64,000 nucleotides of DNA from an uncultured Flavobacteriales bacterium (GTDB lineage: Bacteria > Bacteroidota > Bacteroidia > CAIKAF01). The stretch covers positions 1,946 through 65,945 of the forward strand of contig CAILUT010000011.1 in assembly GCA_903837495.1 (NCBI GenBank), given 5' to 3'. Each line of letters starts with the position of its first letter. Within the stretch, counting starts at the first letter, position 1. The position numbers and the translations under genes were made by a program. The notes beneath the pieces are model-generated. The model was not told where the DNA came from and ran no database searches. It saw only the letters and a list, made by a program, of their open reading frames with translations. Below are positions 5,606 to 58,903 of the stretch, piece after piece.

Positions 5606-5613
5606 TACCTTTG
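5606..5613 (+). promoter_or_regulatory. Bacteroidota sigma-A -7 box (TAccTTTG) 11 nt upstream of the ribF ATG
   Basis: Exact match to the TAnnTTTG -7 consensus of Bacteroidota promoters. The -33 TTG element is not obvious. Confidence 0.3.
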
Positions 5614-5624
5614 CCAAAGGAGTT

Positions 5625-6563: not shown

Positions 6564-7152
6564 GTTCTGCTTGGGCTTTTTATCCTGGCTGTTTTTTGCC
6601 TTTGGCTTATACAGCCAAACGGCAGAATTTCGCGATGAGCCTTTGTACACCGATTTAAAAATAGCCATGGAACACCCAGAACGGGTAAAACGCCTCGCTT
6701 TAAACCGAAAAAAATACAAACGGATTCCCAAAGATGTTTTTAATTTTCCAAACCTGTGGGAACTTGATTTATCAAAAAACAAACTGAGCACCCTGCCACC
6801 TGAAATAAGTAAACTCAAAAAACTCCGGGTACTTAATTTGGAGCGAAACGCCTTAGAATCGCTCCCCAAAGAGCTTTGTGATTTGTCGAAACTGGAGGTC
6901 TTGAACCTGCGAAAAAATGAGCTGTATCAGTTGCCTGACTGCCTAACAGAGTTAAGCCGACTGAATTATCTGATTGTTTCTTCAAACCCTATTTTTAAAC
7001 TTCCCAAGAGCATCAATGGCATGGTTCAGTTGATGGAATTTGACGCTAGGTCAACCGATATTCATTCGGATGCCATAAAATCCATGCAGCAAGCCTTGCC
7101 TGGCAGCCGCATTTTATGGGATTCAGATTGCAACTGCGGGCCGAACCATTAA
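6556..7152 (+). CDS. leucine-rich-repeat (LRR) protein with signal peptide
   Basis: 198 aa. Signal peptide followed by at least five 23-residue LxxLxLxxNxLxxLPxx repeats (LWELDLSKNKLSTLPPEISKLKKLRVLNLERNALESLPKEL…). Its start overlaps the ribF stop by 8 nt. Confidence 0.75.
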   Translation: MRRFCLGFLSWLFFAFGLYSQTAEFRDEPLYTDLKIAMEHPERVKRLALNRKKYKRIPKDVFNFPNLWELDLSKNKLSTLPPEISKLKKLRVLNLERNALESLPKELCDLSKLEVLNLRKNELYQLPDCLTELSRLNYLIVSSNPIFKLPKSINGMVQLMEFDARSTDIHSDAIKSMQQALPGSRILWDSDCNCGPNH

Positions 7153-7174
7153 TCCCAATAGAGAGGGCTAGGGT

Positions 7175-8239: not shown

Positions 8240-8248
8240 ATCAAAACC

Positions 8249-25487: not shown

Positions 25488-26252
25488 TTAGGGATTGTAG
25501 CGTACAGCACGCAAAAGCTGATTTTCTTGAACATATCCTTCCACATTATCGGGATTTTTTACCCGGGCCCAGCCGTCTTTCCAATCTATAATTTCGAGGG
25601 TTTGAGCGGGAACCAAATACATCAACACCTCGGCATCGGGTTGGGGTTTTACCAAAACAGGCGTCTGGTTGATTTTCACAATTCCATACTCTTTGCTGGA
25701 CAACATATACCTCCATTGGGCCGCGAACAAAGAGGCCAATCCAAAACCAATGGAAACCAAAACCAGGGCACTCATATAGCGCCTCAATGCTGGGGAAACA
25801 AACCAAGTTCCAACAAGCAAACCTAAAATCAACAGGGCGATAAAAGCCAGAAACAGAGTTGCCCAGGTTGAGGTAGAAAAGAAGTGTACGCCCCAAGGCA
25901 GAAAAGGCCTGGGCCCTGCGGGCAGTTCCTCGCGCAATTCAATGAAAGTAAGGTTGTCTGAAAGCAATTTTGAATCGGGAAAAAGCAGCAGTCCTTTGTA
26001 CAGATACACCATGGCCAATGGAGTATTTTGCTGCTTCAATGAAATGGAGGCCAGCATATTGTACACATGGGGGTTAAGGTAACCGGCTTCGATAAGGGCG
26101 GAATAATGCACTTGGGCGGAATCAAGCTGCCCTGCCTGATAAAGGCTGTCGGCATTTTGCAATTGCAACTGAGGGGGAAGGCCTTGAGCCAGAACCTGGG
26201 GTTCAGGGTTGAATAAGGCCAAAACGAGCAAAAGAAACAAGGTGCGCATCAT
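25488..26252 (-). CDS. batE: BatE-like protein (TPR-like N-terminus, TM helix, C-terminal SH3b domain)
   Basis: 254 aa. Last gene of the Bat operon. The C-terminal segment YGIVKINQTPVLVKPQPDAEVLMYLVPAQTLEIIDWKDGWARV is a bacterial SH3-like fold. Confidence 0.65.
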   Translation of the reverse strand: MMRTLFLLLVLALFNPEPQVLAQGLPPQLQLQNADSLYQAGQLDSAQVHYSALIEAGYLNPHVYNMLASISLKQQNTPLAMVYLYKGLLLFPDSKLLSDNLTFIELREELPAGPRPFLPWGVHFFSTSTWATLFLAFIALLILGLLVGTWFVSPALRRYMSALVLVSIGFGLASLFAAQWRYMLSSKEYGIVKINQTPVLVKPQPDAEVLMYLVPAQTLEIIDWKDGWARVKNPDNVEGYVQENQLLRAVRYNP

Positions 26253-27975
26253 TTACAGGATTCCATGGATTTGGTGGATTGGCGCAAAATTTGGGCCAGG
26301 CGTTCGGCGTCTTCTTTCATGGGGGATTCAGCGTAGGCGATAGAATGCAATTGAATGAGGGCGGCGGACCAATCGGCGGCGGCTTTTTGTTGGCCCAATG
26401 CTTCAAACCGGTTGCTGAGCTCGGCATGGGCTTGCTGAGAAATGGACAAGTTCCATTGGTCGCGCAGGTATCTTTCCATGGAATTAATCAGGGCCACCGT
26501 ATTTTCTTTCGAGGGGTTTGCGGCCCATGATTTAATTTCGGCCAAGAGAATGGCAGAATTCATTAAAGAAATGGAACGGCGGTTTCGTAGGGCAACCAAG
26601 CCATTTTTGGCCCAAAGAGCATAGAATAAAATCAGCAGCATTAAAAGGCCTAGCCAGGCAAAAAAGGCAAAGCTGCCGTAAAAAGGAACATACAAGGGGG
26701 GCAAGAAAGAGCTGCGGCCTTGGGGTATAGAAACTTGAAATTTAATGGGGCCGGAACCCGACGATTCGGCCTCGTTGGCCGAACCCAATACTTGAACCCG
26801 AACCGAATCGGAGGTAAAGGACTCGAATTTTTTGGTTTTGGGATTAAACCAAGACCAAGTAAAGGGAGGCAACACATAGGAGCCTGGGGTTTTGGCGATG
26901 TAAATGTAATTCACCTGCTTGGTGCCCGTTACACCGGCTTCAGAAAACGCTATTTTATCTTGAACGTCGGGGGCAAAGGCATCGAATTCGGCGGGCATGT
27001 TCAGTTTGGGAAGCTCGAGCAGGTTCAGGTTTCCATTGCCTTTAATTAAGACACTGAGGTCAAAGGCATCGTTCACATTTAGCGTGGTAGAGCCGGGCTT
27101 CACCTCCACATCAAAATCGCCCAGCCCATTGGTAAAATCGGCGGGTCTGCCATCAAAAGGAATAGGCAAGGCAGTTAGGGAAACCTTGGGGGTTTTGAGT
27201 TCCACCTTTTTTTCAACCACCCGGCCCCCGAAAAAAACATCAAAGGGGTCCGAAGACGTTTCCCGGTAGCTTACAACAACGCTTGCAAGCAGGGGGTCGA
27301 TGGAAATTTTACCTTGAACCTGTGGAACCAAAACGTATTTTTTAAGAGTGGCCACCAAAAAGGGTTCGCCTTCTACCTGGGTTTGGCGAAACTGTTGGTC
27401 TTCGGCTTCGGGAATGTCTTGAACCCAGCCCCCGTTTAAGGAAGGAAACTTGACCGACTCGAACTGAACCGAGCTGTATTTGGAATACAAATCAATGCTG
27501 ACAGTCAGGGGCTCTCCAACAAAAACAGTCGTTTTTTCTAAACGGGCCACTGCAAAAATTTGATTGTCGGCCTTTTTAACCGGGGTTTTGTTTTGTTGGG
27601 CAGCGGAGTTGGCTTGAGCCTCGTCGAGTATGGTTAACTGAAGCGGGGCAGATTGGGCCAGCACCCTGCCGTTTGCCAGAAGTTGGAAAGGAGATATAGC
27701 TACCTTCCCGGCTGTTCTACTCATTAAGCGAACCGTAATTTTGAAGGTCGATACCCCATTGATGATGCTTTGCTGTTGAGAAGTTCCCAGCTTTACCAAG
27801 CCATCGAAGGCGGGCAGTTTGTATTGACCTGATAGGCCAGAAATATCGTAGCTGATTTGGAAAGGTTGGTTTGCAACGGGCGATTGGGGTTGCACCGAGA
27901 CCTGAATCTGCTGAGCGGCCAAATGCAGGGTAAAAAAGCAGAAAAGCAAAGTAAACCAATGCATGTTTTTCATGG

Positions 27976-27982
<7 letters not shown>
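26249..27982 (-). CDS. batD: BatD (oxygen-tolerance protein)
   Basis: 577 aa. Signal peptide, long periplasmic portion, a C-proximal TM helix, then a short cytoplasmic tail. Its position in the operon and its size match BatD. Confidence 0.7.
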
Positions 27983-28710
<728 letters not shown>

Positions 28711-29680
28711 TGTGAAACAAAAACTAAATCAAGACAGAGCAAGGCAAAGGCGAACCAAAGAAAGGGAAGGAAGAGTTCTTCTCTGCCAATAGAGGTTTCG
28801 GCAGATAAGCTAGTGGATTTTTTTAGGCGGTCAATTTCGGCCATTACTTTATTCAAGGCGGTGGAGGGGTCGTTTCCTTTTACAAAAAGCCCATTGGTTT
28901 CGGTGGCAATTCGAGCCAACATATCTTCGTTGGGTCGGGTAAAAACGAGTTTCCCTTGGGCGTCGGTTAAGTATGAGCCGTTGTTGGGAATGGGTGCTGC
29001 GACTTGACTTCCGATGCTCATAGCAAAAACCCGTATTCCACGTCGTTTCAACTCATTTAATACGGGGGGCAAATCTCCTTCGTGGTCTTCGCCATCGGAC
29101 ATCAAAATGAGTGCGGGTTCGGCTTCGGATTGTTCGGGCAGGGTTTTAATGGCTTCTTTCAGTGCAGCAGAAATAGAAGTACCCTGCACCGATGGATAAT
29201 CGGTTGAAACGGCATCTAAGAACATCGTGGCTGCACCGTAATCGTTGGTCATCGGCAATTGGATGTGGGCCGAACCGGCAAAAACGATCAAGGCCACTTG
29301 GTCGCCTTTCAGGCGTTTTAACACGGCCGAGATGGCTTGTTTTGCACGGGACAGGCGATTGGGTTGCAGGTCTTCGGCCAGCATAGAGCGGGAAGCATCT
29401 AAGCAAAATACCAGTTGGGTTCGGGTTTTGGTTCGGGGACTATCGGTAATTCCTCCTTTAGGCCGAGCCAACACAAAGACAAGGGCGGTTAAAACCAGCA
29501 GGCGTATGGCATACCGAACAATCAACACATACTTTGGGAACAAACCCAGGGTTCGGTGCAAAGATACGATGTGGCCTAGGCGCAAAAACCGGCCAATTCT
29601 CCAGCGGTAATCCAGAACAAAAAGCAGGATAAGCGGAAGTAAGGCCCAAAGCCCAATCAAATATGTAGGATATTCGAAGT

Positions 29681-30697
29681 TCACGGTTCTGTTACGCTTT
29701 TAAACCAAAGCAGGCGTAGGGCCCATTCTAGCATTAGGAAAAGGGCGGCTAAAGCCACAACAGGCCAAAACAGGTCGGGCCTAACATAAAACTCTTTGTC
29801 TTGAATCAAGGTTTTTTCTAAGGTATCGATTTCTTCAAAGATGGTTTTTAGAGACTGCTCGTTTTCGGCCCGGTAGTAATTTCCTCCGGTTTGGGCGGCA
29901 ATGTCTTTGAGCAGAACTTCGTCTATCTCGACCGGAGCCATTCCAAAAACCAAAGACCCATTGGGATTCATGGCAACGGGCGACAAGGCACTGCCTTTTT
30001 TTCCGACGCCTATGGTATAGACTCGAACTCCAAAGGTTTTGGCAATTTCGGCGGCGGTGGCGGGCGTGATGTTTCCGCTGTTGTTCACTCCGTCGGTCAG
30101 CAAAATCACCACCTTGCTGGTAGATTCAGAATCTTTGAGTCGAGCCACTGCGGTTCCTAAGCCGGCGCCGATGGCAGTACCATCGACCAACATGCCGGTT
30201 TCAATTTTCGACAAAAGAATTTGAAGTACTTGATGGTCAAGGGTGGCCGGGCATTGGGTAAAGCTTTCGCCCGAAAAAATCACCAAGCCAATGCGGTCGC
30301 TCGGCCGGCCTTCAATAAACTCAGCGGCAATTTTTTTTGAGACGCCCAAGCGGTCGGGCGAAAAGTCTTTGGCCTTCATCGAGATAGAAATGTCCAAAGC
30401 CAGTTGAATGTCCACAATTTCTCGGTTCACCTCGGTCATGCCTATGTGGCCTCGTGGTCGGGCCAGTGCCACAACAATCAAGATTAAGGCTAGCGCCCTA
30501 AAGAAATTGGGCAACCAACGCAGGCGTTGCCGCAAAGAGATGGGGTACTTTACCGTTGGGTCAGGCAACACAGGGTGCAGCCAGCCCTTTCCTTCTTTTT
30601 TATTTTTACGCTGCCGAAGCCAAGCCAGCAAACCCACCAAAGGTATTAAAGCAAAGACCCAGGGATAATCGAATTGGATGTTTAACAGGTCATTCAT
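29681..30697 (-). CDS. batA: BatA (von Willebrand factor A domain membrane protein)
   Basis: 338 aa. VWA MIDAS motif in LALDISISMKAKD. TM helices at both ends. 4-nt overlap with batB. Confidence 0.8.
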   Translation of the reverse strand: MNDLLNIQFDYPWVFALIPLVGLLAWLRQRKNKKEGKGWLHPVLPDPTVKYPISLRQRLRWLPNFFRALALILIVVALARPRGHIGMTEVNREIVDIQLALDISISMKAKDFSPDRLGVSKKIAAEFIEGRPSDRIGLVIFSGESFTQCPATLDHQVLQILLSKIETGMLVDGTAIGAGLGTAVARLKDSESTSKVVILLTDGVNNSGNITPATAAEIAKTFGVRVYTIGVGKKGSALSPVAMNPNGSLVFGMAPVEIDEVLLKDIAAQTGGNYYRAENEQSLKTIFEEIDTLEKTLIQDKEFYVRPDLFWPVVALAALFLMLEWALRLLWFKSVTEP

Positions 30698-31616
30698 TCG
30701 AATTCGATGTTAAGGGTTTAAAATGCGCGCGGCAGGCCTCAACAAAAGCTAGGGCGGCATCGATCAATTGTTGGTGTTCGGCATGCCCGGGTTGTTGTTT
30801 GGCGAATTTCACCAAATCGGCGATGTGCAGCACATACTTTAGTTCCCGGCCTGTATTTTCTTCCTCAGGCCGGCGTTTCCATAAAGCCAACCATTCTGAG
30901 CTGGTCATTTCAGATACATCTAGCTTATAAACCTGATTCACCATTTGACGCAGTACATCCACCGTTCGGGTGTAAAACTCTTTGATTTGTTCCTCTGACA
31001 TATTGGCTTGCTCGGCCTTGAGTTGCAGCAATGCGGCTATAGCAAAGTCAAAGGGATCTATTTTTGGAGCGGCGGGCATGGGTTTGGCTGGTTTTCGTTT
31101 TTTGAAAACAAACCAAACCAACCAGGCCAAAAAGGCCAGAGCAACAAGCAGGGCAATCCAAGGCAAAAATTCATGCCAATGGTAACCTGGGTCGGGATTG
31201 GCCAAAATATCTTGAAAATCGGCTTGTAGATTCACATCGGGGGCCAGTATTTCAATGGGGCTGCTCGGAATTCGAACGTTTAGGGTATCGGCTCCGTTTA
31301 AAAAGCCCAGGGTGATTTCAGGAATTTGAGCGGTTCCAGAATCATACCCCACCACTTTCAGGCGCAGACCAAAACGAAGTTGAGCTGAATCCAACCAATT
31401 TACCTGAAGCAATTCAAAGGGGCCTAGGCTGTCGGTCAATTCAGGCCAAACCATAGAAGCCGTTGGTTTGGGCTCAGGCAGCAGCAAATCCAGGGAAAAG
31501 GGTTCGCCCAGCAAAACTGTATCTTTTTCGGCCTTCCATTTCAGGCCAAAGGAAACTTGAGCTTGGGCATAGCAGGTACCAATAAGTAAAAGGAAGAAAG
31601 CCAAACCTTGTTTCAT
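30690..31616 (-). CDS. DUF4381-type membrane protein of the Bat operon
   Basis: 308 aa. Signal peptide, one central TM helix (WIALLVALAFLAWLVWFVF). It is the conserved third gene of the moxR-DUF58-X-batA… operons. Confidence 0.55.
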   Translation of the reverse strand: MKQGLAFFLLLIGTCYAQAQVSFGLKWKAEKDTVLLGEPFSLDLLLPEPKPTASMVWPELTDSLGPFELLQVNWLDSAQLRFGLRLKVVGYDSGTAQIPEITLGFLNGADTLNVRIPSSPIEILAPDVNLQADFQDILANPDPGYHWHEFLPWIALLVALAFLAWLVWFVFKKRKPAKPMPAAPKIDPFDFAIAALLQLKAEQANMSEEQIKEFYTRTVDVLRQMVNQVYKLDVSEMTSSEWLALWKRRPEEENTGRELKYVLHIADLVKFAKQQPGHAEHQQLIDAALAFVEACRAHFKPLTSNSNE

Positions 31617-32512
31617 CTGCGTATGCCTCTAGATTTAAACAACTGATTCAAGGGCCTACTCACATCGGCATCCGACCGAAATTCGGCTAAATCGACTCCA
31701 TACCGTTGTGCGGCCAATTTCAACTTTTTTTGTTGGTGTTGCCAGGTATCTTGCCAGTGCAGCCGAACGCTTTTTTTATGGGTATCTAGCCAAAAAGAAT
31801 CCCCCGATTCTGGGTCTTTTAATCGGATTAAGCCGGCATCTGGGAGTTGGCAAAGAAGGGGGTCTGAAATACGCATCAGCAGCAAATCGTGTTTTCTTGA
31901 TGCGATTTTTAAGGCATCGGAAAAAGAGGGTTCAATAAAATCGCTGAGGCAAAATACGGTCGATCTTTTTCGCAATACCCGGCCTAGGTATTCCATGGCA
32001 AGGCCGGTTCTGGTTCCAGAATGTTCCGGAACGCAAGCCAAGAAGTCCCGTAAAATCCGCAAAAAATGGGAGCGGCCTTTTCGAGGTGGAATAAATTGTT
32101 CAACTTTAGAGGAATAAAAGACAGCCCCAATTTTATCGTTGTTTTGAACGGCAGAAAATCCAACGATGGCCGCAATTTCGGCGGCCAACTCGCGCAGAGA
32201 GCGGTGGTGGGCACCAAAACCAGACGAGGCACTCACGTCCAACATCAGCATCACGCTCAATTCCCGCTCTTCCTCAAATACCTTAACAAAAGGTTCGTTG
32301 AAGCGTGCCGTTACATTCCAGTCAATAAACCGAACGTCGTCACCGTATTGGTAATTGCGCACCTCGGCAAACGACATGCCACGGCCTTTAAAGGCGGCGT
32401 GGTATTGCCCCGCGAACAGTTGATTGCTCAGACCACGGGCTTTGATTTCAAGCCTACGTACCTTTTTTAAAAGGTCTCTTAACTCATCTGGACTGTTTGT
32501 ATTTGATTCCAT
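31613..32512 (-). CDS. DUF58 (VWA-like, MoxR-associated) protein
   Basis: 299 aa. The FAEVRNYQYGDDVRFIDWNVTAR segment is typical of DUF58. Located directly downstream of moxR. Confidence 0.8.
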   Translation of the reverse strand: MESNTNSPDELRDLLKKVRRLEIKARGLSNQLFAGQYHAAFKGRGMSFAEVRNYQYGDDVRFIDWNVTARFNEPFVKVFEEERELSVMLMLDVSASSGFGAHHRSLRELAAEIAAIVGFSAVQNNDKIGAVFYSSKVEQFIPPRKGRSHFLRILRDFLACVPEHSGTRTGLAMEYLGRVLRKRSTVFCLSDFIEPSFSDALKIASRKHDLLLMRISDPLLCQLPDAGLIRLKDPESGDSFWLDTHKKSVRLHWQDTWQHQQKKLKLAAQRYGVDLAEFRSDADVSRPLNQLFKSRGIRR

Positions 32513-35179: not shown

Positions 35180-37444
35180 TTATTGAATCATCAATCGACG
35201 TACTTGGCTTTGACCGTTTACAACGGCTTTAACCAGATACATGCCGCTTTCGCCAAAGGCAGAACGTTGAAGTGTAAGGGTGTTTGAGCCCTGGGTTAAG
35301 GCCTGGGTAGATTCAACATGAATCAAACGTCCAGCTAAGTCAAACACCTCGATGTTGCTTCCAATGGAGGCCGATTCGTCCAATTGAATCTGCACATTTC
35401 CAGAGGAAGGGTTCGGGTGCATTTTAAAACCCGTTGGCAAAGGCTGTTCTGCAATAGCGGTTGTGGCATCGGAAATGGTAAAATCATCGATGTACAGGGG
35501 ATTTCCATAAGGGCCACCGCTGGTAAAATGAAACATAATGCGGACGTTGTCGCGGCTGCTAAAGTTGGCCAAATCAACCGTGAAATAAGACCATTCGTCG
35601 GGAGAAGAAGGCACAAAGTTTGAGGGGACCAAACCGGCTGTTACCAAATTGGTACCTGCCAAAGCGGTTAAAGAATTGCCCTCATTGCGCAATTTCATGC
35701 CCCGCAGCTGCCAAGATTCACCGCAGTTGGTTGACACGTACATTTGAAGTTGGTCGTTTTGCTCGATAAAGGGTTGGTTGGTGCGTTGAGAATAGGCGTA
35801 TTTCACCTCCAACAGCGGATTGTCCACTGTGGTTAAATCGTACGAAGGCGAAACCATGAAAAAGCGTTCGTACCGCAAAGATCCGCTGGAATTGCAACGG
35901 GCTGCGCCATAGCTTTTGTACCCGCCGTAGTTTACTTTTTCCCAGCCGTTTGCAGCATTCGCTCCTTCGTTGATGCTCACCCATTTGCCATCGGCAAAAA
36001 AGCTGTAGCCTGGCCCTGCCTCCATGGCATCGTAGTAGCGGTAGTTGTTGTCCATGGCTTGGTCGGATGAAACCAAAACATATCCTTGACGGGTTCTTGA
36101 ATCGCTTCCGTTGGCGTTGGTAGCGGTTAATTTTACATCGTACCTGCCGGGCACATCGTATTGAACCAAGGGCTCTGGGTCCGTAGAAGTTGCAGTTGCG
36201 GCTCCGGAAAGGTCCCAAGCATAAGAATTGCTGGCAGTACTGCCGTTGTGGGTTCCGTTTTTCATGTTTAGGGAACCTCCTTCGCAAATCATTTTTAGGG
36301 ATTCAAAGTTGTTGCTTCCTTGTTTTGACCAAAATTCGGCGATGGGTGCCGGTGCACAGGGGCTTGCCTGAGAAGCATCGTCGGTGCCGGTGGCCAGGGC
36401 ATTGGCGTTGGCAATAATATTGCTGCGGAAAGAAATGGTATTAAACACAAAATCCATGACTTGTTTTTGACCTTTGGAGAACATATTCATGCAATTGTCG
36501 TCGGTGTAATCCATGTAATTGTTGAACATTTCACCAATTTGAAAGCGGGCGATGGTATCGGCAGCGGTGCTATTGGAGGTCAATTCGAGGCAGGTGGCCT
36601 CTTTGGGAAAATTGAAGCAGCCAAAATTGGGTTCACGAGAAAACGGGGTATCGTCCACTTGGTCGTTTCCGCAATCGTCGTCGCCCCAGATGTGAATCAA
36701 TCCCAACCAATGTCCAACTTCGTGCGTCATGGTGCGGCCGGCGGTTCCGGCGGCCGTACCGGTTTTGCCGGTGCGGTTGTGAATCATCGCAATTCCGTCG
36801 GTAGTGGTAACGGGGTTAAAGCCACCAAAAGAATAAGGGAACTGCGCGTAACCTAAGATGTTGCCAAAAGGGTTGCCATCGTTGTCGATGGTTTTTACCA
36901 CCCAAATGTTTAGGTATTTGGCCCGGTCCCAATAACTCAATTGCTTGAAACCTGTGTAATCGCGGGCTGTATTGGTTTTATACGAAAACACCCGGTTGAT
37001 GCCGTCGGTGCAAGCTCCGTTGGGCGCTTTGGTGGCCAAACGAAACTCGATGTTGGCATCGGCAGCAATGCTGTCGAAGTATGGGGGAATAACAACCTTG
37101 TCGGCATTGGTGTAGGTGAAATCCAAATTAACCGAAGCCAATTGACTTAAAATTTGAGCGGTTGAAATGTTTTCGGAACCGCCCTCATGAATGACGTGAA
37201 CCACAACAGGAATGATGCGTTTTCCGTTCTCGGATGTTTCAAATTGACCCAGATTAAGGGACTTAAATTCCTTAAAATCTTCCACGAACTTGACATATCC
37301 ATCCCAAAAATCCGGATGTTGTTTGGCATAATCGGACAAGTGGCTGCCGCATTGAACGTGTTGATGCTGAGCCTGTAGCCCGGAAATTCCAGATACATAA
37401 ACCCCAAGTACAATGCTCAATGATGTGATTAAGAAGTGCTTCAT
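35180..37444 (-). CDS. secreted zinc metalloprotease, M43 (pappalysin/cytophagalysin-like) family with T9SS C-terminal sorting domain (paralog of 10713-12806)
   Basis: Start taken at MKHFLITSLSIVLGVYVSG (37444). Shares the N-terminal block IPVVVHVIH…, and has the metzincin motif HEVGHWLGLIHIWGDDDC (HExxHxxGxxH). The C-terminus FKMHPNPSSGNVQIQL…MYLVKAVVNGQSQVRRLMIQ is T9SS-CTD-like. Confidence 0.8.
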   Translation of the reverse strand: MKHFLITSLSIVLGVYVSGISGLQAQHQHVQCGSHLSDYAKQHPDFWDGYVKFVEDFKEFKSLNLGQFETSENGKRIIPVVVHVIHEGGSENISTAQILSQLASVNLDFTYTNADKVVIPPYFDSIAADANIEFRLATKAPNGACTDGINRVFSYKTNTARDYTGFKQLSYWDRAKYLNIWVVKTIDNDGNPFGNILGYAQFPYSFGGFNPVTTTDGIAMIHNRTGKTGTAAGTAGRTMTHEVGHWLGLIHIWGDDDCGNDQVDDTPFSREPNFGCFNFPKEATCLELTSNSTAADTIARFQIGEMFNNYMDYTDDNCMNMFSKGQKQVMDFVFNTISFRSNIIANANALATGTDDASQASPCAPAPIAEFWSKQGSNNFESLKMICEGGSLNMKNGTHNGSTASNSYAWDLSGAATATSTDPEPLVQYDVPGRYDVKLTATNANGSDSRTRQGYVLVSSDQAMDNNYRYYDAMEAGPGYSFFADGKWVSINEGANAANGWEKVNYGGYKSYGAARCNSSGSLRYERFFMVSPSYDLTTVDNPLLEVKYAYSQRTNQPFIEQNDQLQMYVSTNCGESWQLRGMKLRNEGNSLTALAGTNLVTAGLVPSNFVPSSPDEWSYFTVDLANFSSRDNVRIMFHFTSGGPYGNPLYIDDFTISDATTAIAEQPLPTGFKMHPNPSSGNVQIQLDESASIGSNIEVFDLAGRLIHVESTQALTQGSNTLTLQRSAFGESGMYLVKAVVNGQSQVRRLMIQ

Positions 37445-37610
37445 ATTCTGTTTCGTATGTACTGCAAATTTCGCAATTGGAAAGGGTAAAAGCAAATGTT
37501 AAGCGCCGATGAACATAGGGATATCAAAAAAAGGGGTTAATAAACCAAAAATGAAGGGGATTTATAGGCGGTTTAATGTTAATTTTGCCGCAAATTAATC
37601 CCAAAACAAC

Positions 37611-47960: not shown

Positions 47961-48497
47961 CTATGGCTGGTATAACAGACTATCCTTGAGCAATGCGCTG
48001 CTGTCTTCTAAAGTATTGTTCAGGGTGGTCAGCACCGAAAGGGCTGTTTCGGCCGCCTGAGCCTTGGGGTGCTCTGGATAGGACTTAACCACCGCCAAAT
48101 ATGAAATTTCAGCCTCGTCGTAATTCAAAAACAACATTTGGTAAACCTGACCCCGCAAATAAAGCAGTTCGGGTTTGCGTGCAAAGGTTGGCATTTCTTC
48201 CAACAAGGTTAAAGCCATAAGGGCAGAATCGCCCTCGTTCGATTTAAAATACAATTCGGCGGCATTGAAAATCAACGAAGGGGCCGAAGAATCGGAAGGG
48301 TAGGCACGGTAGAAAGCCATCGCTTTCTGCGAAAAGCGTATCCACAAATCCCGCTGAGCAGGACCAAACAATCCGTTTATGTTGTCTTCCATGATGCGTT
48401 CCCGCAAGGCCGACAATTCTTTATACTGTTCATTGCGGGCGCTGTCGCAGCCAAAAAAACCCAACACACACAAAACCAAAAGTATACGCAGTACCAT
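47961..48497 (-). CDS. TPR-like lipoprotein, unknown function (4th gene of a coupled operon)
   Basis: 178 aa. Lipobox LGFFGC. Helical repeat content. Its ATG shares a base with the stop of the upstream gene (TAATG). Confidence 0.5.
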   Translation of the reverse strand: MVLRILLVLCVLGFFGCDSARNEQYKELSALRERIMEDNINGLFGPAQRDLWIRFSQKAMAFYRAYPSDSSAPSLIFNAAELYFKSNEGDSALMALTLLEEMPTFARKPELLYLRGQVYQMLFLNYDEAEISYLAVVKSYPEHPKAQAAETALSVLTTLNNTLEDSSALLKDSLLYQP

Positions 48498-49933
48498 TAA
48501 CGAAATTTAACCTTAAATATAAGACCTGTTCCGTTTAAATCAAAAATTAGTTGAATTATTTCTTCAGTTTGGGAGGGTCGTTGCAAGGGTTCATTCGAAT
48601 AAACTCCTTTCCCAAGGTCTTTCCCCGCCAGGGTTTTCCAGCAAAAAGGCGTACCGATGGAAATTCCTGAAACCTGCAATTGATTTTCGGCGGGGTTGGG
48701 ATATACTTTAACTTGAAGGGGTTGCACATCTTCCTGGCTAAGAACGGTTGACAGGGCACAACTTCCATCAAAACCAAACCGGGTTAAAAAGGCTGAGTTT
48801 TGCCCTAAGCTGTGCTCATTGCTTTCGCCTACCACAATAAAGCCCTGATCCCATATTTGCGTATATCCGGCCATTTTTTGGTATCCGTAGCGGGCCGATA
48901 AAGTACCGTACAAAAAACTCATGTACTGGGTTTTGTCGTAGGATACATCCCAACTGTCATCGAAGTAGCGGCTCGACAAGGTGTATTGTACGCCTCCATC
49001 GGCTAAATACCCTGTATGTGAATGCCTTCGCTCTACGCTGCCCGACAATCCTAAATTCAAGCGACCAATGTCTTCGCCATATTCAGCGATGCGCCACAGA
49101 AAATTTTTCCATCGCCCTTGTTCGTCTTTTACATTTCCGCTCAACAACCACGAAAAAGCGCCGGTGGTGCTAATAAAAGGGCAAATTGAATACACCTCAT
49201 CTTCGTCGGAACCGCCCGAAAAAATAGTGGTGTCGGCCGCCAAACTAAAAGGTTGAACCAACGCAGCGAAGGCATCTGCTTCCCCAATATCTCCAGGAAA
49301 AACGGTACCTCCAATCAGCCAATTTCCGGCCGGCCCAAGATGAGCTGCGTTGGGTTGGGCGTCAACTCCGTTGGCCACCCAGGTGGTATCTCTAATCACA
49401 TCTCCGGCATCGGTCATCAACACCAATCGAACATCGCCGCCTCCATCTCCGCTGCTGTAGGTATGCAAAAGCAGCAAAAAATGTCCATCCGCATCGCGAA
49501 AAATACCCCGACCAAAATCCCAGCCACTGCCTCCGAAGGTCATGGTTTTAAGTGTGTCGCCGCTGGGGTTTGCCAATACCAGCCAGGCGTCGTAGCCGCC
49601 TTGGCCAAAGCTGTTGGTTTGACCCAACAAGGCCCAAACGGAAGAATCGGAGTTCCAGACCGAATAATTCAAGGCATCTTGACCTGGCCCGCCTAAGGTC
49701 TTATACCACAATGGATTTCCTAAGGAGTCGGAGCCGGCTAAAAAGGCATCTCCTTGATTGGACTGAACAATGCCGGCAAAAACCAAGCTGCTGTCGCGGG
49801 TCGCAAGCACTGTTTTTCCTGAACTGTACGACTCCCAGCTAAAGGTTCTAAACCAAGTGCTTTGGCCCCAAGATTCCACCGAAAGGCAAGTCCAAGCAAG
49901 CCCAAAAACGACCAAATGTAGGCTTCGAATCAT
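48497..49933 (-). CDS. secreted beta-propeller-like protein with T9SS-type C-terminal domain (3rd gene of a coupled operon)
   Basis: Start taken at MIRSLHLVVFGLAWTCLSVESWGQS (49933), which gives a 4-nt overlap with the upstream gene. The ORF could extend to 50005. Repeated G..D.G…DG.. blades. C-terminus VKVYPNPAENQLQV…IFKVKFR is T9SS-CTD-like. Confidence 0.5.
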   Translation of the reverse strand: MIRSLHLVVFGLAWTCLSVESWGQSTWFRTFSWESYSSGKTVLATRDSSLVFAGIVQSNQGDAFLAGSDSLGNPLWYKTLGGPGQDALNYSVWNSDSSVWALLGQTNSFGQGGYDAWLVLANPSGDTLKTMTFGGSGWDFGRGIFRDADGHFLLLLHTYSSGDGGGDVRLVLMTDAGDVIRDTTWVANGVDAQPNAAHLGPAGNWLIGGTVFPGDIGEADAFAALVQPFSLAADTTIFSGGSDEDEVYSICPFISTTGAFSWLLSGNVKDEQGRWKNFLWRIAEYGEDIGRLNLGLSGSVERRHSHTGYLADGGVQYTLSSRYFDDSWDVSYDKTQYMSFLYGTLSARYGYQKMAGYTQIWDQGFIVVGESNEHSLGQNSAFLTRFGFDGSCALSTVLSQEDVQPLQVKVYPNPAENQLQVSGISIGTPFCWKTLAGKDLGKGVYSNEPLQRPSQTEEIIQLIFDLNGTGLIFKVKFR

Positions 49934-51186
49934 AGCTTTGGTATCAAAATTCGTTTGCTGACCTGAAATCCTGCCGACAATCCGCGGCCAGCCGCATTTG
50001 GCCAAATGGATTCGGCATTTCGGGTAAAAAGCTGAAAAGCCCAGCCCCTACCTGCATCTACCCCAAAGTTAAGGCCTACCTTCCATAGGCATACTCCCCC
50101 ACCCGATGCACTTATTCCGGCATTCAGCCGCCCTTTACCCAAATAATAAAAAGCCAATTCCACCTCAGGAATTGGCATTAAATGCGGAGCATAATGCACC
50201 TGTGCCTGAAGCAAGGCCTTGTTTTGGAAAAGCCGCCGGCCGTAACCCAGCCGAATTCCAACCGGAAGAACGCTTTCAAAAGACCGCCGTACATCTGAAA
50301 CAATTAAATTAGAACCTATGCTGTCCAATTGTTCTTGGAACAAGGTTTCGCCTACCTCGGCTATATTGGGTACTGCAAAACCCGACCAAACCAGTTCTGA
50401 ATCCAATTCGATTGCCTGGGCTTGCCGATTCCAAAACATCAACCCCGCATCTTGCACCGAAAAGCTCACAACATGTCCGTTCTTATGCTGGTATTCAAGG
50501 CTGCCCCGAAACGAAAAACCCAATCCGGCCGGATATAAAAATGCCGAACCCGATGGGTCCGAAGCCCGAAGCTGAACTCGATCCATGCCCAGGCGGAGCT
50601 CATCTCCGTCCGGGTGGGTGTAAAAACTCCCCCCCTGCATTTGGGCATCTCGAAAAAAACTGCCGTTTACAAAGCCCAAACCAAAACTTAAAAACCAGGT
50701 TGAATTTGTTCGGCTAAAGGCCCTGGCCAAGGAAAAATCAATGGTTTGGTAGTTGGTTAAAAACCCCGACCCCGCATTCAAATCCAAAGTTTGACCTGCG
50801 TAGGGAGCATTGCCTCGACTGATTAACCCAAACAAATCGGCGTCGTAAGAAGCATAACCAATCCAAGAATTTGAAAATCCCAAGGAATGCCTCCACTGCC
50901 CTCCGCCGAAAGCCGAATCCAAACCCCAATATCGAAAAGCCGTTTCCCAGCGTCCGCTGGCGTATCCCTGCTGATCGGCTTGCACCGAAAGCATGTCGGC
51001 CTGGCTGAACGACTTGCCAATCAAAGCTTGAGAAACAAACCAGCCGTTCAGGTGGCTGGACTCAAAATTGCCCTCAGAATGCAAGCTAACCTGCCCTTGA
51101 CTGGAATACCTGTCGTGGAAAAAATCGGGCCTGGCCTGATTCCCAAACCACCCAAACAATGGAAATAAAAAAGGAATGGGGTTCAT
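49930..51186 (-). CDS. putative outer-membrane beta-barrel protein, unknown family (2nd gene of a coupled operon)
   Basis: 418 aa. Gly/aromatic-rich with an alternating hydrophobic pattern typical of OM barrels (…GFSFRGSLEYQ…, …LAFYYLGKGRLNAGISAS…). Overlaps the upstream gene by 4 nt. Confidence 0.4.
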   Translation of the reverse strand: MNPIPFLFPLFGWFGNQARPDFFHDRYSSQGQVSLHSEGNFESSHLNGWFVSQALIGKSFSQADMLSVQADQQGYASGRWETAFRYWGLDSAFGGGQWRHSLGFSNSWIGYASYDADLFGLISRGNAPYAGQTLDLNAGSGFLTNYQTIDFSLARAFSRTNSTWFLSFGLGFVNGSFFRDAQMQGGSFYTHPDGDELRLGMDRVQLRASDPSGSAFLYPAGLGFSFRGSLEYQHKNGHVVSFSVQDAGLMFWNRQAQAIELDSELVWSGFAVPNIAEVGETLFQEQLDSIGSNLIVSDVRRSFESVLPVGIRLGYGRRLFQNKALLQAQVHYAPHLMPIPEVELAFYYLGKGRLNAGISASGGGVCLWKVGLNFGVDAGRGWAFQLFTRNAESIWPNAAGRGLSAGFQVSKRILIPKL

Positions 51187-52790
51187 CGGTTAAATCCTAT
51201 GTTCACTCCGGCACGAGCCACCAACCGAAAATCCATGTAATAATGGCTTTTCATCGACACCAAATTGGCTCCGGGCGGGGTGTTTAAAAAAGCTTTCAAT
51301 TTTACAAATGCCGTTTGCTTCAGCACACCCAGTTTGGCCTCGCTTACCTCTATGCTTTGATTAAACGCCACCGCCTGTTCTACAATTCCAGTGTTTGGGT
51401 TGGGTTGCCCGGCAGGAACAATTAAATTTTGAATCAGGGTGTCGAGCACCTGCCTATTGGCATCCAACAGTTCAATCAGCAAACGGGTTTCAAAGGGGAA
51501 CAAGGTTTCGCCCTTTAACCACAGGGTGGCGTTGTTCAGGGCTTTGTAATCGGATTCCTTCAGCGTCCAGGCAACCGTATCGGTAAAGGCCAAATTTTGA
51601 GCCGAAAACTTCATGGGCAAACGGGCATCAATGCTAAACTTGGGCAAGGCATCGGGATATATAAAATCCATAAATCCTGCGGTATTGCCCAAGGGATTTA
51701 TGCTTACATCTACCTCAACCCCAATTTCATCGGGCAGGGCCGATAAAAAATCCAGAATGTTGGAATTTTGGTTGTTGATTTCGTAGGTGTAGGTCTTGGG
51801 CGCGGGTGCTGCTCCGCCGCCCGTCCAAACTGCCCGATCTATCCATAAATTTTTGTTGATGATGTCGTGTTGAAGGTCCACCTGCAAACCGCTCTCGCTT
51901 CGTTCTGCCCAAAAACGCCTTGGCCTTACCTTTAATTCAGCTCCCAAGGTGTTTTCTAACCGCAAAACAACACGGGCTTGCTCAAATTGAACGGCATCGG
52001 CCGACAACTTGCTGAGCTCGGGAATGCGCGTCAAAGAGGCGGGAATCGACAGCTCTTGAGGCAAAAAGGCCCCACGCAACCACAGTGGATCCATGTCTTT
52101 GAACTGGGTGGCTATCGTAAATAAGGCTTGACCTTGCTGCACGTTCAGCGGCTCTTCGCCCGCAGCAATAGAAGGCAGAACCATAATTTCTAGGCGGTTT
52201 GAGCCCTTTAAATCCAATCCCCGCAAATCCAACCTATGGCCCGCCAAATCGAACGATCGGCTCAGGGCCACCGGATTTTGCCCGGGTACCCAAGCCGCTA
52301 AACTCCCTGAAAATCCAATGGCTTGACCATTCAACCTGGCCATAGGAATGCTGTACTTGAAATTCATTTTACGCGGAATCGATGAACTAACCGCAACGTC
52401 AATCCGCCCCCCCTCCATCAATGCCTCCACCATTTCAGCATTGGGCACCATAAAATTCATGTAAATGGGAGGCAGTTGCATGTCGATCCCCGGATAAATG
52501 GTAATGGCCGGATAATCCCAATAAAAGGTATCGTTCACCGCCAGGGTTCGAAAGGCCGACAGGGTATCCAAATTAATCGGAAGGGCATTCCCTTGAATTT
52601 CCAAAACCAACTGCCCATTGGGATCAACAGCCACCGATGAATCTCCCACCAAATTCTGCAAGGTCATTCGGCTGTGCATAATAGGCGCCAAGGCTTCCAC
52701 ATCCCAATCGGTTTCAGAAGGGTTGCAGGCCAAAAGACCAACTAAGATTCCTAAGAATAAGAAGAGCTTTTTCACAGAATAAAGGTACAT
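51183..52790 (-). CDS. large lipoprotein of unknown function (1st gene of a coupled operon)
   Basis: 535 aa. Signal plus lipobox LVGLLAC. No recognisable catalytic motif. Confidence 0.5.
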   Translation of the reverse strand: MYLYSVKKLFLFLGILVGLLACNPSETDWDVEALAPIMHSRMTLQNLVGDSSVAVDPNGQLVLEIQGNALPINLDTLSAFRTLAVNDTFYWDYPAITIYPGIDMQLPPIYMNFMVPNAEMVEALMEGGRIDVAVSSSIPRKMNFKYSIPMARLNGQAIGFSGSLAAWVPGQNPVALSRSFDLAGHRLDLRGLDLKGSNRLEIMVLPSIAAGEEPLNVQQGQALFTIATQFKDMDPLWLRGAFLPQELSIPASLTRIPELSKLSADAVQFEQARVVLRLENTLGAELKVRPRRFWAERSESGLQVDLQHDIINKNLWIDRAVWTGGGAAPAPKTYTYEINNQNSNILDFLSALPDEIGVEVDVSINPLGNTAGFMDFIYPDALPKFSIDARLPMKFSAQNLAFTDTVAWTLKESDYKALNNATLWLKGETLFPFETRLLIELLDANRQVLDTLIQNLIVPAGQPNPNTGIVEQAVAFNQSIEVSEAKLGVLKQTAFVKLKAFLNTPPGANLVSMKSHYYMDFRLVARAGVNIGFNR

Positions 52791-52882
52791 ATTTTTTATT
52801 CAGGGGCTCAAGTCTTTGGCAAACGGACAATGCCCGTTTTAAGGTACACCCCTGCATCGAACAGCCCAAAAAAGCACTTTAT

Positions 52883-56621: not shown

Positions 56622-57590
56622 TCAACGGAGCATTGCCTCCGAAGCCTTCCAACAAGGCAGCAGCCCCTTTTCTTGAGCGTAGTGCTGCCATTGGTCGGCG
56701 GGGCCCAAGCCCAGCATAAAATCGCCACCCCAAGCACCCATGGGTTTCAGAGCCCCGGGAGCGTCAGAAAAGGCCTGGGAAGGGTTGGGTTGCTGCAGCA
56801 ATTTTTGCAGAATCTTGTTGTGTTGATTCAATGCTAGGGTCCATTCTGAAACGGTTTGTTGCCGGTGCATGTGCAGGCTAATTTCAGAAATTTCGGCTGC
56901 CGCCATTTGCCGTTCCGCCAGGGAAAGCGCGCGGTATTGCCGAATGGCATCGGAGGATTGAGCCTTGCGGCCCAGGTAGAAAAAGTGCATTTGCTGCAGC
57001 AATTCAGGAGCCAAGGAAATGGGCTGAACCGAAGGAAAATCGGGCTTGTCAAGCCGGTACAAAATAGGCTGCAAGGCTGTTGCACAGGCAATGTCGTATC
57101 CAGACCCTCCAAAACTTTGCCGAAGCAGGGTGTAGGGATTCTGCTCTAGGAATTGCCCCAGCAAACTGACCAAGGTTGAGCTGCTACCGAGTCCCCAACT
57201 CCGGTTAAAATCGGCTTGAAAAACCAGTTTTTTAGACTTAAGGAAATGACGTTTCAGGTCTGCGGGAACGGCCGACAGAAGCTGTTCCAGCTTCTGGGCT
57301 ACGTCCTCGAGGTTGCTTTCCATGACCAAACCGGTTCCGGGATGTACAGTGGCTTTGAACCAGACATCTTGGTTGGCTTCTTGGCTTTCAATGAGGCAAA
57401 AATCGCCTTGGTAGGGTTCAATGTGGAGGGTTTGTCCCCATTTTAATGGAAGAGCAAGGGCCCAAGCTCCGTCCAAAACCACGTATTCAGCGCTGAGCAG
57501 AAACTTAGCGTTTGCCCTAAGGGGCGGTTGCCCAGTGTGGGATTGCTGGCTGATTTGCAATGGAATTAAGGGATGGGTGCCTGTCGCCAT
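56622..57590 (-). CDS. GHMP-family kinase of the mevalonate pathway (mevalonate kinase-like)
   Basis: 322 aa. GHMP ATP-binding motif WGLGSSSTLVSLL. N-terminal …AKFLLSAEYVVLDGAWALALPL… resembles the mevalonate kinase start. The 5' end overlaps the hmgR stop by 25 nt, so the true start is probably a downstream non-ATG codon. Confidence 0.6.
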   Translation of the reverse strand: MATGTHPLIPLQISQQSHTGQPPLRANAKFLLSAEYVVLDGAWALALPLKWGQTLHIEPYQGDFCLIESQEANQDVWFKATVHPGTGLVMESNLEDVAQKLEQLLSAVPADLKRHFLKSKKLVFQADFNRSWGLGSSSTLVSLLGQFLEQNPYTLLRQSFGGSGYDIACATALQPILYRLDKPDFPSVQPISLAPELLQQMHFFYLGRKAQSSDAIRQYRALSLAERQMAAAEISEISLHMHRQQTVSEWTLALNQHNKILQKLLQQPNPSQAFSDAPGALKPMGAWGGDFMLGLGPADQWQHYAQEKGLLPCWKASEAMLR

Positions 57591-58903
57591 TGTTCTAGGT
57601 GTTCGCGAACGGAGGTAAAAGAGACTTTGTGCTGTTTAAAATGTTCGACTGCGGCCAATTTTTCTGCTTCGCTGGCTTGAAAATGGTTTAAAATATTGAG
57701 CAAGTGCATTTTCATGTGGCCCTTTTGAATTCCGGTGGTGGTCAAGGAACGTAGGGCTCCGAAATTGTTGGCTAAGCCGGTGCAAGCTGCGATGCACATC
57801 AATTCTTCGGCCGAGGGTTTTCCGAGCAATTCAAGTGCATAAACAACGAGGGGGTGCAGGGTAGTTAGGCCACCGACCACTCCGAGCGCCATAGCCACTT
57901 CGAGGGTGTAGGTAAACATGCCATCGCTCAGATCGAGGTGGGTAAGGCTTTGGTACTGTCCGTTTCTTGCGGCGTAGGTGTGGCCACAGGCTTCAACGGC
58001 TCGGAAGTCGTTTCCGGTGGCAAGCACAACCGCGTCAATTCCATTGAAAATGCCTTTGTTGTGGGTAGTTGCCCGGTGCACATCAATTTCGGCTACGCGT
58101 ACGGCCTTTTGAAATTTCGAAGCGAAGGTTTGGGCGTCGATGCCTTCGTGGTTGCCCAGATCGGCAATGGGGCATTGCACCCAAGTGCGCACCAAGCAAT
58201 CGGGCGTATAATTGGACAAAATGCTCATGATAACGTGGACTTCGCGTTCCGAATCATCAAAATGCGGAGCGTCTTGCAACCAGTCCTTAAGGATTTGTGC
58301 GAATTCTTCTAGGCAGGAATTGATAAAATTAGCCCCCATAGAATCGCAGGTATTGAATCGGGCTTTAAGTTGAAAGTAGCCCGGTTCGGCATGGCAAAAA
58401 TCCAACAATTCCACATCTAAAATACCGCCACCGCGTTGCTGCATGTTGGCGGTAATGTGGGTAGTATTGGCAAACAGGAGCTGCTTGAGTTCAGAAAAAT
58501 GGCTTTTCAGGAGTTCGGCGCGTCCATTCCAAATAAAATGAACCTGCCCTATTTTAATTGCGCTCACAATTTCGGCATGAAAGCCGCCCTTATCGGACCA
58601 AAATTTTGCGCTTTTGCTGGCGGCGGCCACCACAGAACTTTCTTCAATCACCATGGGCACCATGTACAGGTGCTGATTGAGAAGCAAGTTTGGAAGCACC
58701 CCAAAAGGGAAGGCAAAGTTGCTTAAGGTATTCTCGCTAAATTCCTCAAGGCGCTGTTGCACCGCCGGATTGGGATGCCAAAAGCCTTTAAAATCGTTTT
58801 TGGCTTGAAGGGGATTGCTCAACAGATTTACCACTGCATCGAGCTTTTGCTCTTTAGATGCTTTTGAAAAACCGTCAATGGCCTTTAAAAATCGTTCGTT
58901 CAT
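57566..58903 (-). CDS. hmgA: hydroxymethylglutaryl-CoA reductase, class II
   Basis: 445 aa. …NTCDSMGANFIN… (the DAMGxN catalytic-region counterpart). Soluble class II length. Confidence 0.8.
   Translation of the reverse strand: MNERFLKAIDGFSKASKEQKLDAVVNLLSNPLQAKNDFKGFWHPNPAVQQRLEEFSENTLSNFAFPFGVLPNLLLNQHLYMVPMVIEESSVVAAASKSAKFWSDKGGFHAEIVSAIKIGQVHFIWNGRAELLKSHFSELKQLLFANTTHITANMQQRGGGILDVELLDFCHAEPGYFQLKARFNTCDSMGANFINSCLEEFAQILKDWLQDAPHFDDSEREVHVIMSILSNYTPDCLVRTWVQCPIADLGNHEGIDAQTFASKFQKAVRVAEIDVHRATTHNKGIFNGIDAVVLATGNDFRAVEACGHTYAARNGQYQSLTHLDLSDGMFTYTLEVAMALGVVGGLTTLHPLVVYALELLGKPSAEELMCIAACTGLANNFGALRSLTTTGIQKGHMKMHLLNILNHFQASEAEKLAAVEHFKQHKVSFTSVREHLEQWRQAPIP

Follow-up and report, generated by a model that had tools for sequence, protein, structure and literature searches.

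A translationally coupled lipoprotein and DUF5723 barrel gene pair, often followed by a gene for a T9SS-tailed propeller, recurs across Bacteroidota

A 64,000-nt stretch of DNA from an uncultured Flavobacteriales bacterium (contig CAILUT010000011.1; referred to below as the window) contains four successive genes for exported proteins, here designated A, B, C and D, in which the conserved unit is a two-gene A-B core and not the four-gene operon. Our preferred explanation, which we consider evenly poised between right and wrong, is that the lipoprotein A and the barrel protein B form an ancient, Bacteroidota-wide and undescribed outer-membrane complex, with C as a frequent third component delivered by the T9SS and D as a lineage-specific scaffold. 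Gene order, coupling, family memberships and conservation were observed directly.

The four ORFs are all located on the minus strand and encode proteins of 535, 418, 478 and 178 amino acids. Gene A (51183..52790) encodes a lipoprotein predicted to be all-beta; gene B (49930..51186), a predicted outer-membrane β-barrel protein of the DUF5723 family; gene C (48497..49933), a putative secreted protein with signal peptide, β-propeller and T9SS type-A CTD; and gene D (47961..48497), a lipoprotein with YbgF/BamD-like TPR repeats. The overlaps of 4, 4 and 1 nt described in the original prediction could be read directly: the A/B junction (51183-51186, minus strand; CGATGAAC) is an ATGA overlap with the start of B within the stop of A, the B/C junction (49930-49933, minus strand; CTATGATT) is an ATGA overlap as well, and the C/D junction (48497, minus strand; TTAATGG) overlaps by 1 nt in TAATG. 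Gene C has an alternative TTG start (ORF 48497-50005); the ATG at 49933, which gives the 478-aa protein, is preferred because C homologues begin with M-K/R and a signal peptide. As genes in this genome frequently overlap at start and stop (12 of the window's 33 pairs of same-strand neighbours, i.e., 36%), three successive overlaps are weak evidence alone, and the "obligate co-expression" originally deduced from them was an over-reading. The signal above chance is the A-B junction, which is kept across genomes.

The cluster has rarA and a metC-like (Cys/Met-metabolism) gene as close neighbours on the same strand. The 92-nt rarA-A intergenic region (52791..52882, minus strand) is the sole plausible place for a promoter of the cluster and may carry a putative one; 37 nt before the ATG of A, the sequence TCCGTTTG comes close to TAnnTTTG, the -7 motif of Bacteroidota. 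A sigma-70 promoter scan revealed nothing above background, and a terminator scan stayed at background level.

Sequence inspection upheld the earlier claim that all four products are exported, with lipoboxes in A (LLA-C22) and D (FFG-C17) and signal peptides in B and C. It also proved correct that no product falls into a characterised family: no Pfam or NCBIfam model matches A or its relatives (31 members), and B belongs to DUF5723, for which, as for DUF4621 (see below), the literature searched describes no function. Word-indexed searches with A, with B and with an A-family alignment returned near-identical proteins and one distant match only, and it was an exhaustive profile search (E ≤ 1e-3) that opened the A family, which comprises 3,903 clusters at 50% identity. 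Across 31 diverse relatives the lipobox Cys never varies, and the family-signature stretch (51663..51767, minus strand; N-S-N x8 P x11 N-P-x-G-N x5 D-F) has a single match in the window. Behind the lipid Cys, 57% of the family have K/R at position +2, 57% at position +3, and 41% have D/E at position +4, a pattern resembling C-x-K-(D/E)2, the export signal of Bacteroidota lipoproteins. The A protein of the window reads CNPSETD from the Cys on, with neither Lys nor a K-(D/E) motif, which counts against our preferred explanation.

The C-terminal ~180 aa of A are remotely homologous to DUF4621 (PDB 4H3W). This structure was found by a PDB profile search with the A family (E = 2e-4) and by Foldseek with the model of A (E = 1.5e-8), and hhalign aligned A to a DUF4621 protein with 95.3% probability (E = 2.2e-8). 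Since this homology is remote and confined to the C-terminal part, and since the DUF4621 Pfam model (PF15414) is matched neither by A nor by 30 relatives, A is regarded as a relative of DUF4621 and not as a member. The AF2 model of A has a mean pLDDT of 55, is better in residues 250-525 and is reliable in the C-terminal half only. Identification of A as BamH or as a pilin was supported neither by the PDB profile search nor by Foldseek.

Protein B matches Pfam PF18990 (DUF5723) with E = 5.3e-13 and 49.8 bits (cutoff 26.8) over profile positions 73-366 of 376, and 27 of its 31 syntenic homologues match this model as well. Furthermore, hhalign aligned B to the DUF5723 protein of Parabacteroides distasonis with 96.9% probability, and a Brachyspira DUF5723 protein has been modelled as a 16-stranded barrel. 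B homologues possess classic signal peptides ending in A/S-Q and a C-terminal OMP-type β-signal; the N-terminus of the window's B is, by inspection, an atypical signal peptide, hydrophobic and uncharged, and this too counts against the preferred explanation. Structure prediction, which had been proposed as a check, gave a reliable C-terminal half for A and its Foldseek match, but the AF2 model of B (pLDDT 29) is unusable for fold comparison. The earlier impression that the barrel is not a canonical PorP was borne out, as no PorP/SprF model of Pfam or NCBIfam matches B at E ≤ 1; DUF5723 is its sole Pfam family, and NCBIfam gave none. A profile built from 31 homologues of B retrieved no chain from the PDB at E ≤ 10, solved barrels such as PorV and FadL included. 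On sequence, identity of B with PorP/SprF, PorV, FadL or BamG was rejected, the exclusion of PorQ and BamG assuming that their structures are among the PDB chains searched.

Relatives of the locus were fetched from GTDB with a hand-built degenerate DNA pattern of the A-family motif alone, which yielded 120 loci, all from MAGs and all representing the A subgroup that retains the motif (98 of 149 top representatives). These loci span Flavobacteriales, Chitinophagales/Saprospiraceae, Sphingobacteriales, Cytophagales and Bacteroidales, and their proteins share 18-38% (A) and 14-24% (B) identity with those of the window. In 110 of the 112 assessable loci (114 of 116 with the window and three close relatives), A is followed by a same-strand B, and a B ORF lies just downstream in both exceptions. 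The commonest A-B gaps are -4 nt (27 loci), -1 nt (22) and +3 nt (14). In the 72 loci whose sequence continues for 1 kb or more beyond B, gene C follows B in 45, directly in 25 and after kdsA in 20; it is absent beside B in a third of the loci and never accompanies the long A variants of ~690 aa. Gene D was present only in the window and in three near-identical relatives (L001-L003) among the GTDB loci compared. The linkage of all four genes is confined to near relatives.

The DUF4621-DUF5723 pair of P. distasonis is an independent confirmation of the A-B linkage at the superfamily level. There, the gene for the DUF4621 lipoprotein BDI_1231, the protein of PDB 4H3W, is followed after 37 nt by a gene for a canonical DUF5723 protein and then by one for a GT87 glycosyltransferase. 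As in A-B, the lipoprotein gene precedes the barrel gene on the same strand, B and the C-terminal ~180 aa of A have their homologues in the DUF5723 protein and in DUF4621, respectively, and a membrane glycosyltransferase gene lies downstream, as in some A-B-C loci. In contrast to A, the DUF4621 protein has only 352 aa, and neither a T9SS propeller gene nor any other CTD gene was found beside the pair.

Protein C appears from an alignment with 34 syntenic homologues to be a CylK/SBBP-like β-propeller of ~50-55-aa repeat units. Its signal peptide ends ..SWG|Q (cleavage after SWG23), and a T9SS-like tail is found at its C-terminus. The propeller of the C-family profile aligns to that of CylK (PDB 7FH7, 7RON; E = 1.9e-41), whereas the window's C alone reaches only E = 2; the N-terminal domain of CylK is presumably missing in C. 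The T9SS tail claimed in the original prediction is well founded for the family: the family profile hits the solved T9SS CTD chains 8glk_D/8glj_D (E ~ 1e-11), and Por_Secre_tail scores above the Pfam cutoff in 10 of 10 syntenic orthologues (28.5-54.6 bits). Judged by these matches to type-A models (PF18962/TIGR04183), the family of C appears to carry a genuine type-A T9SS CTD; the type-B model (TIGR04131) gave no NCBIfam match at E ≤ 1. The claim is less secure for the window's own copy, whose CTD (48500..48712, minus strand; residues 408-478, VKVYPNPAE...FKVKFR) is C-terminally shortened, as seen in alignment columns 560-610, and matches Por_Secre_tail below threshold (E = 0.033, 14.9 bits, cutoff 27) at profile positions 1-13 only. 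This truncation is a further point against our preferred explanation. Other T9SS cargo or CTD proteins are encoded in the window genome. Identity of C with PorA was rejected, PorA being a 246-aa protein with a FimH-like domain (PMC7712824). Separately, the order of UniProt accessions and the numbering of locus tags in the literature hint that Porphyromonas gingivalis may encode a DUF5723 protein beside PG2173 (Omp28) and PG2172 (PorA). PorA has a CTD and is reported to arrive at the surface independently of the T9SS core.

The original prediction had proposed a dedicated T9SS cargo-anchoring module, which we now consider unlikely. Here, B would bind the uncleaved CTD of C and hold C at the surface in the manner of PorQ-PorZ or PorP/SprF-SprB, A and D being accessory. 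In PorQ-PorZ, PorV-PorU and PorP/SprF-SprB, an outer-membrane barrel is likewise encoded beside a CTD-bearing surface protein, and PorZ contains β-propeller domains and a CTD. However, C (478 aa) has one CylK-like propeller only, and the invariant partner of B is the lipoprotein A and not a CTD protein. The type-A CTD in the family of C and the position of C after B, often with overlapping or near-touching start and stop, are in line with anchoring; the divergent, shortened CTD of the window could fit a retained rather than a cleaved CTD, and known barrels do tether CTD-bearing T9SS components (PorQ-PorZ, PorV-PorU; PMC8754138, PMC12365241). Against this, B matches neither PorP/SprF nor, in sequence, the solved barrels including PorV, A-B is universal in the loci and C is not, and the most tightly linked partner, A, is left without a role. 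The occurrence of A-B with no CTD gene nearby, as in the long-A lineages and in P. distasonis, weakens anchoring of T9SS cargo as the main purpose of the module.

The genes around A-B recur as well. A kdsA-type gene is found in 27 of the A-motif loci, a lipid A late acyltransferase gene (Lip_A_acyltrans) upstream in 6, PMT_2 downstream in about 5, an FkbM methyltransferase gene in 5 and rarA, with no obvious functional tie, in 41. Because of the recurring kdsA, lipid A acyltransferase and GT-C-type membrane glycosyltransferase genes, a surface task related to envelope glycolipids or glycans would be the most likely role of A-B, although these LPS/glycan genes may be there as part of a conserved housekeeping context. 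An explanation built on them, and in our view an improbable one, is that A-B acts in outer-membrane or LPS biogenesis or maintenance by handling a glycolipid, either LPS or the one that anchors T9SS cargo, C being a co-regulated passenger. The tight spacing of kdsA between B and C, the upstream acyltransferase, the downstream GT-C-type glycosyltransferases (PMT_2 and the GT87 protein of P. distasonis) and a phylum-wide distribution like that of a core envelope function speak for it. However, this support is guilt by association, searches with Pfam, NCBIfam and PDB profiles revealed no resemblance to Lpt, to Mla, to PagP/PagL or to any lipid-handling family, and the neighbours in the window are the metC-like gene and rarA and not LPS genes.

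Equally doubtful is TonB-independent uptake, in which B would be a substrate channel, A its surface-exposed binding lid and C a surface-anchored propeller for binding or processing, together a small SusCD-like nutrient module. Against it stand the conserved housekeeping context (rarA, kdsA) and the near-universal single-copy conservation of A-B, which is atypical of niche nutrient loci. Furthermore, genes for regulators, glycoside hydrolases or inner-membrane transporters were not found beside A-B in the 120 loci, and no carbohydrate-binding family of Pfam or NCBIfam matches A (31 members). That the four genes have no functional connection and are merely packed in a compact genome, as the frequency of overlaps in the window, the restriction of D to close relatives and the equally close, same-strand rarA and Cys/Met-metabolism genes might suggest, is very improbable and for A-B is contradicted by an adjacency that persists in at least five orders, at protein identities of 14-38%, and recurs as the DUF4621-DUF5723 pair.

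D matches TIGR02795 (YbgF C-terminal domain; E = 7.5e-7, 29.8 bits, cutoff 90.1), TIGR03302 (BamD; E = 7.6e-4, 19 bits, cutoff 81.4) and TPR_6 (E = 0.017). Like YbgF/CpoB and BamD, it is a small TPR lipoprotein, and its repeats are similar to BamD and to the C-terminal domain of YbgF, but it scores far below the NCBIfam cutoffs for membership in either family and is confined to one lineage. D is a lineage-specific accessory.

Barrel-plus-surface-lipoprotein complexes are an established design in Bacteroidota, as exemplified by BamG-BamH (PMC12611786). In the Flavobacterium johnsoniae BAM, the outer-membrane barrel BamG anchors the multi-domain surface lipoprotein BamH, and both are conserved across Bacteroidota (PMC12611786). 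This pair is the best mechanistic analogy for A-B, although bamG and bamH appear unlinked by their locus tags (Fjoh_1412, Fjoh_0823; PMC12611786), whereas A-B is translationally coupled. Apart from 4H3W, the PDB profile searches recovered no solved chain as a sequence relative of A or B.

As the AlphaFold models are poor (B unusable, A in its C-terminal half only), we infer the physical complex, its topology and the function of A-B. According to our preferred explanation of A-B as an outer-membrane complex, B would insert in the outer membrane as a DUF5723 β-barrel, and A, translated by coupling from the same transcript, would dock on it as a multi-domain β-sandwich lipoprotein, probably on the extracellular face in most family members. 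C would be exported by Sec, recognised by the T9SS via its type-A CTD and displayed at the surface, where it may work with or next to A-B, and D might scaffold the complex from below as a periplasmic TPR lipoprotein. The pair of DUF4621 lipoprotein and DUF5723 barrel in gut Bacteroidales would then have its longer counterpart in the A-B module. A wider reading, which we regard as a long shot, is that the A family/DUF4621 and DUF5723 constitute an unrecognised core outer-membrane machine of Bacteroidota, either a docking or insertion station for particular T9SS-delivered proteins or a handler of the T9SS-cargo glycolipid, with C as its cognate client; the apparent P. gingivalis neighbourhood may be a hint at this.

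The outer membrane of Bacteroidota is built and decorated unlike the proteobacterial one, with surface subunits of BAM, export of surface lipoproteins and the T9SS, and several of its envelope machines have been recognised only recently. The coupled lipoprotein-barrel pair comprises thousands of clusters in at least five orders, including, as the DUF4621 form, gut Bacteroidales; A has no family model, and for neither A nor B did the literature searched yield a functional paper. With two small genes, likely present in tractable flavobacteria, and a frequent T9SS client adjoining, A-B offers a clean testable target, and learning its function could uncover a new step in how the envelope is assembled or how T9SS cargo is displayed at the surface.

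The four minus-strand ORFs of the original prediction are present as described, with their start/stop junctions (ORF calls, junction reading): gene A (51183-52790), encoding a lipoprotein of 535 aa with the lipobox LLA-C22; gene B (49930-51186), a predicted outer-membrane barrel protein of 418 aa with a hydrophobic, uncharged N-terminus; gene C (48497-49933), a propeller protein of 478 aa from its ATG, with a signal peptide ending SWG|Q; and gene D (47961-48497), a putative TPR lipoprotein of 178 aa with the lipobox FFG-C. The longest ORF of C begins at a TTG at 50005; the ATG start is favoured by the alignment of homologues. The A/B and B/C junctions both read ATGA and the C/D junction TAATG. 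The gene for RarA (MgsA family) lies 92 nt upstream of the cluster on the same strand, and that for a Cys/Met-metabolism PLP enzyme 19 nt downstream. Start/stop overlaps occur in 12 of the 33 same-strand neighbour pairs of the window, and seven successive minus-strand ORFs at 25488-32512 overlap by 4, 7, 40, 4, 8 and 4 nt. Overlaps are thus routine in this genome, and those of the cluster are real and, by themselves, unremarkable.

Protein A matches no Pfam or NCBIfam model, and neither does any of 30 diverse members of its family. Word-indexed searches retrieved only relatives of 84-99% identity (three near-identical loci sharing the order rarA-A-B-C-D-metC with the window) and one 19%-identical protein. 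An exhaustive profile search gave 3,903 clusters at 50% identity with E<=1e-3 (1,132 with E<=1e-30), labelled as hypothetical proteins in the sources. Nearly all members are 495-540 aa long; the 30 diverse ones are 18-38% identical to A and have in common the lipobox cysteine, W..P, and the motifs N-S-N, N-P-x-G-N and N-G-F-P. The sole solved relative is 4H3W, the DUF4621 protein BDI_1231 of Parabacteroides distasonis, which is matched by A residues 340-523 (profile E=2e-4), by hhalign (probability 95.3% for A against the DUF4621 protein) and by the AF2 model of A (Foldseek E=1.5e-8; the model is mediocre, its C-terminal half being the reliable part). In many A proteins the lipidated cysteine is directly followed by K/R-K-(D/E), a motif that resembles the surface-lipoprotein export signal of Bacteroidota and suggests that members of the family are surface-exposed; it is missing from the A of the window.

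Protein B belongs to DUF5723 (Pfam PF18990; 49.8 bits, cutoff 26.8), as do 27 of the 31 syntenic B proteins tested, although these are only 14-24% identical to it. The signal peptides of its homologues are of the textbook type, and their C-termini carry an OMP beta-signal. In the literature searched, no functional account of DUF4621 or DUF5723 was found.

The gene neighbourhood was sampled with a degenerate DNA pattern made from A-family motifs, which matches the window once. A scan of one genome per GTDB species yielded at least 120 loci, all in Bacteroidota MAGs; the motif is kept by 98 of the 149 top A representatives, so that the loci sample this subgroup of A. Neighbours were identified by local iterative HMM searches over all six-frame ORFs. 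As the loci were picked on A alone, what adjoins A is an unbiased observation. The matches listed include Flavobacteriales (with Flavobacterium and Chryseobacterium bins), Chitinophagales/Saprospiraceae, Sphingobacteriales, Cytophagales and Bacteroidales. Of the 112 GTDB loci among them that could be assessed, 110 have a B homologue immediately 3' of A and in the same orientation (114 of 116 once the window and the three near-identical loci are added), and in the two exceptions a B ORF is present just downstream all the same. The commonest A-B gaps among these matches are -4 nt (27 loci), -1 nt (22) and +3 nt (14). Two Bacteroidota A-B pairs sit on contigs whose MAGs are labelled Agrobacterium and Akkermansia (L008 and L026); these contigs are probably mis-binned. 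Two contigs of MAG JBJTNN01 (L099 and L115) each carry a long A (682 aa) with B; either the module can be duplicated in one genome or this bin is mixed.

The pairing was tested independently on contigs of P. distasonis that encode the DUF4621 protein of known structure. There, a DUF4621 lipoprotein of 352 aa is followed after 37 nt by a canonical DUF5723 protein (Pfam E=2.9e-116; B-family HMM E=3e-19; hhalign probability 96.9%) and directly thereafter by a GT87 membrane glycosyltransferase gene; these genes lie at 5467-9294 of the metagenome contig L125. Beta-sandwich lipoproteins and DUF5723 barrels are therefore paired at the superfamily level, and as far as gut Bacteroidales. Just upstream of the DUF4621 gene (L125 4486-5334) lies an ORF of 282 aa that has a lipobox-like N-terminus and matches nothing in Pfam. 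In Porphyromonas gingivalis W83, the UniProt accession of the DUF5723 protein Q7MT24 is next to that of PorA (PG2172, Q7MT25), PG2173 being the locus tag of the lipoprotein Omp28 (PMC12937337, PMC9722745, PMC7712824); these accession and locus-tag numbers point to a putative link between PorA, Omp28 and the DUF5723 protein.

The conservation of C is looser. No full-length Pfam or NCBIfam match was obtained for it, and over its last 97 residues only part of the Por_Secre_tail model is matched, below threshold (E=0.033), whereas this model scores above cutoff in all ten syntenic C homologues tested. According to the alignment, the CTD in the C of the window lacks about a dozen residues close to its end, hence its weak score. 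A profile of the C family hits the beta-propeller of CylK (E=1.9e-41) as well as T9SS CTDs of known structure (E~1e-11), and the alignment displays repeat units of ~50-55 residues followed by a YPNP...K-x-I/V CTD. Among the matches listed, 72 loci extend 1 kb or more past B; C follows B in 45 of them, directly in 25 and with a single gene in between in 20, and is found downstream in none of the lineages with a long A (~690 aa). The genome clearly uses a T9SS, as two further ORFs of the window have strong CTDs: a 1,234-aa cargo protein with nine PKD domains (18886-22590, plus strand) and an M43 peptidase of 771 aa that also has a PKD domain (35180-37495, minus strand). D, with weak similarity to TPR, YbgF and BamD proteins far below cutoffs, is restricted to the window and the three near-identical loci. 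The four-gene linkage is accordingly not a conserved unit, D being local and C absent after B in many loci; the conserved unit is A-B.

Some of the further neighbours among the matches listed hint at an envelope glycolipid theme, by association only. The gene inserted between B and C encodes a DAHP_synth_1 protein of ~270 aa, the size of KdsA (e.g., L045:3017-3829; 27 loci, mostly Flavobacteriales-type bins), so that a Kdo/LPS gene lies within the cluster; a lipid A acyltransferase (6 loci) and PMT_2 glycosyltransferases of the GT-C type (about 5) are also found. An FkbM methyltransferase gene occurs in 5 loci, rarA is upstream in 41, and in 34 an opposite-strand gene of ~147 aa without Pfam match, absent from the window, lies between rarA and A (e.g., L067:4663-5103). 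Elsewhere in the window, a minus-strand HMG-CoA reductase gene (57566-58903) and an overlapping 322-aa ORF without Pfam match (56622-57590) may belong to a cluster for the mevalonate pathway.

Coupled translation of A and B persists in at least five orders, at protein identities of 14-38%, from which we infer that the two proteins would form a stoichiometric outer-membrane complex of lipoprotein and barrel. Assemblies of a barrel with a surface lipoprotein are established in Bacteroidota, e.g., BamG-BamH (PMC12611786). The proposed A-B complex shares this design, although neither A nor B is detectably related to any solved chain except 4H3W. The original prediction of a PorP/SprF-like anchoring of T9SS cargo is a less likely reading; it is weakened, as B matches neither the PorP/SprF models nor, by sequence, any solved barrel, and A-B also occurs without any adjoining CTD gene. 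In the lipoprotein-barrel complex proposed here, C would be a third, T9SS-delivered partner, often present but dispensable, and D a local addition. The four genes of the window are thus one lineage's elaboration of a two-gene core, and this envelope module of Bacteroidota is real, widely conserved and hitherto undescribed.
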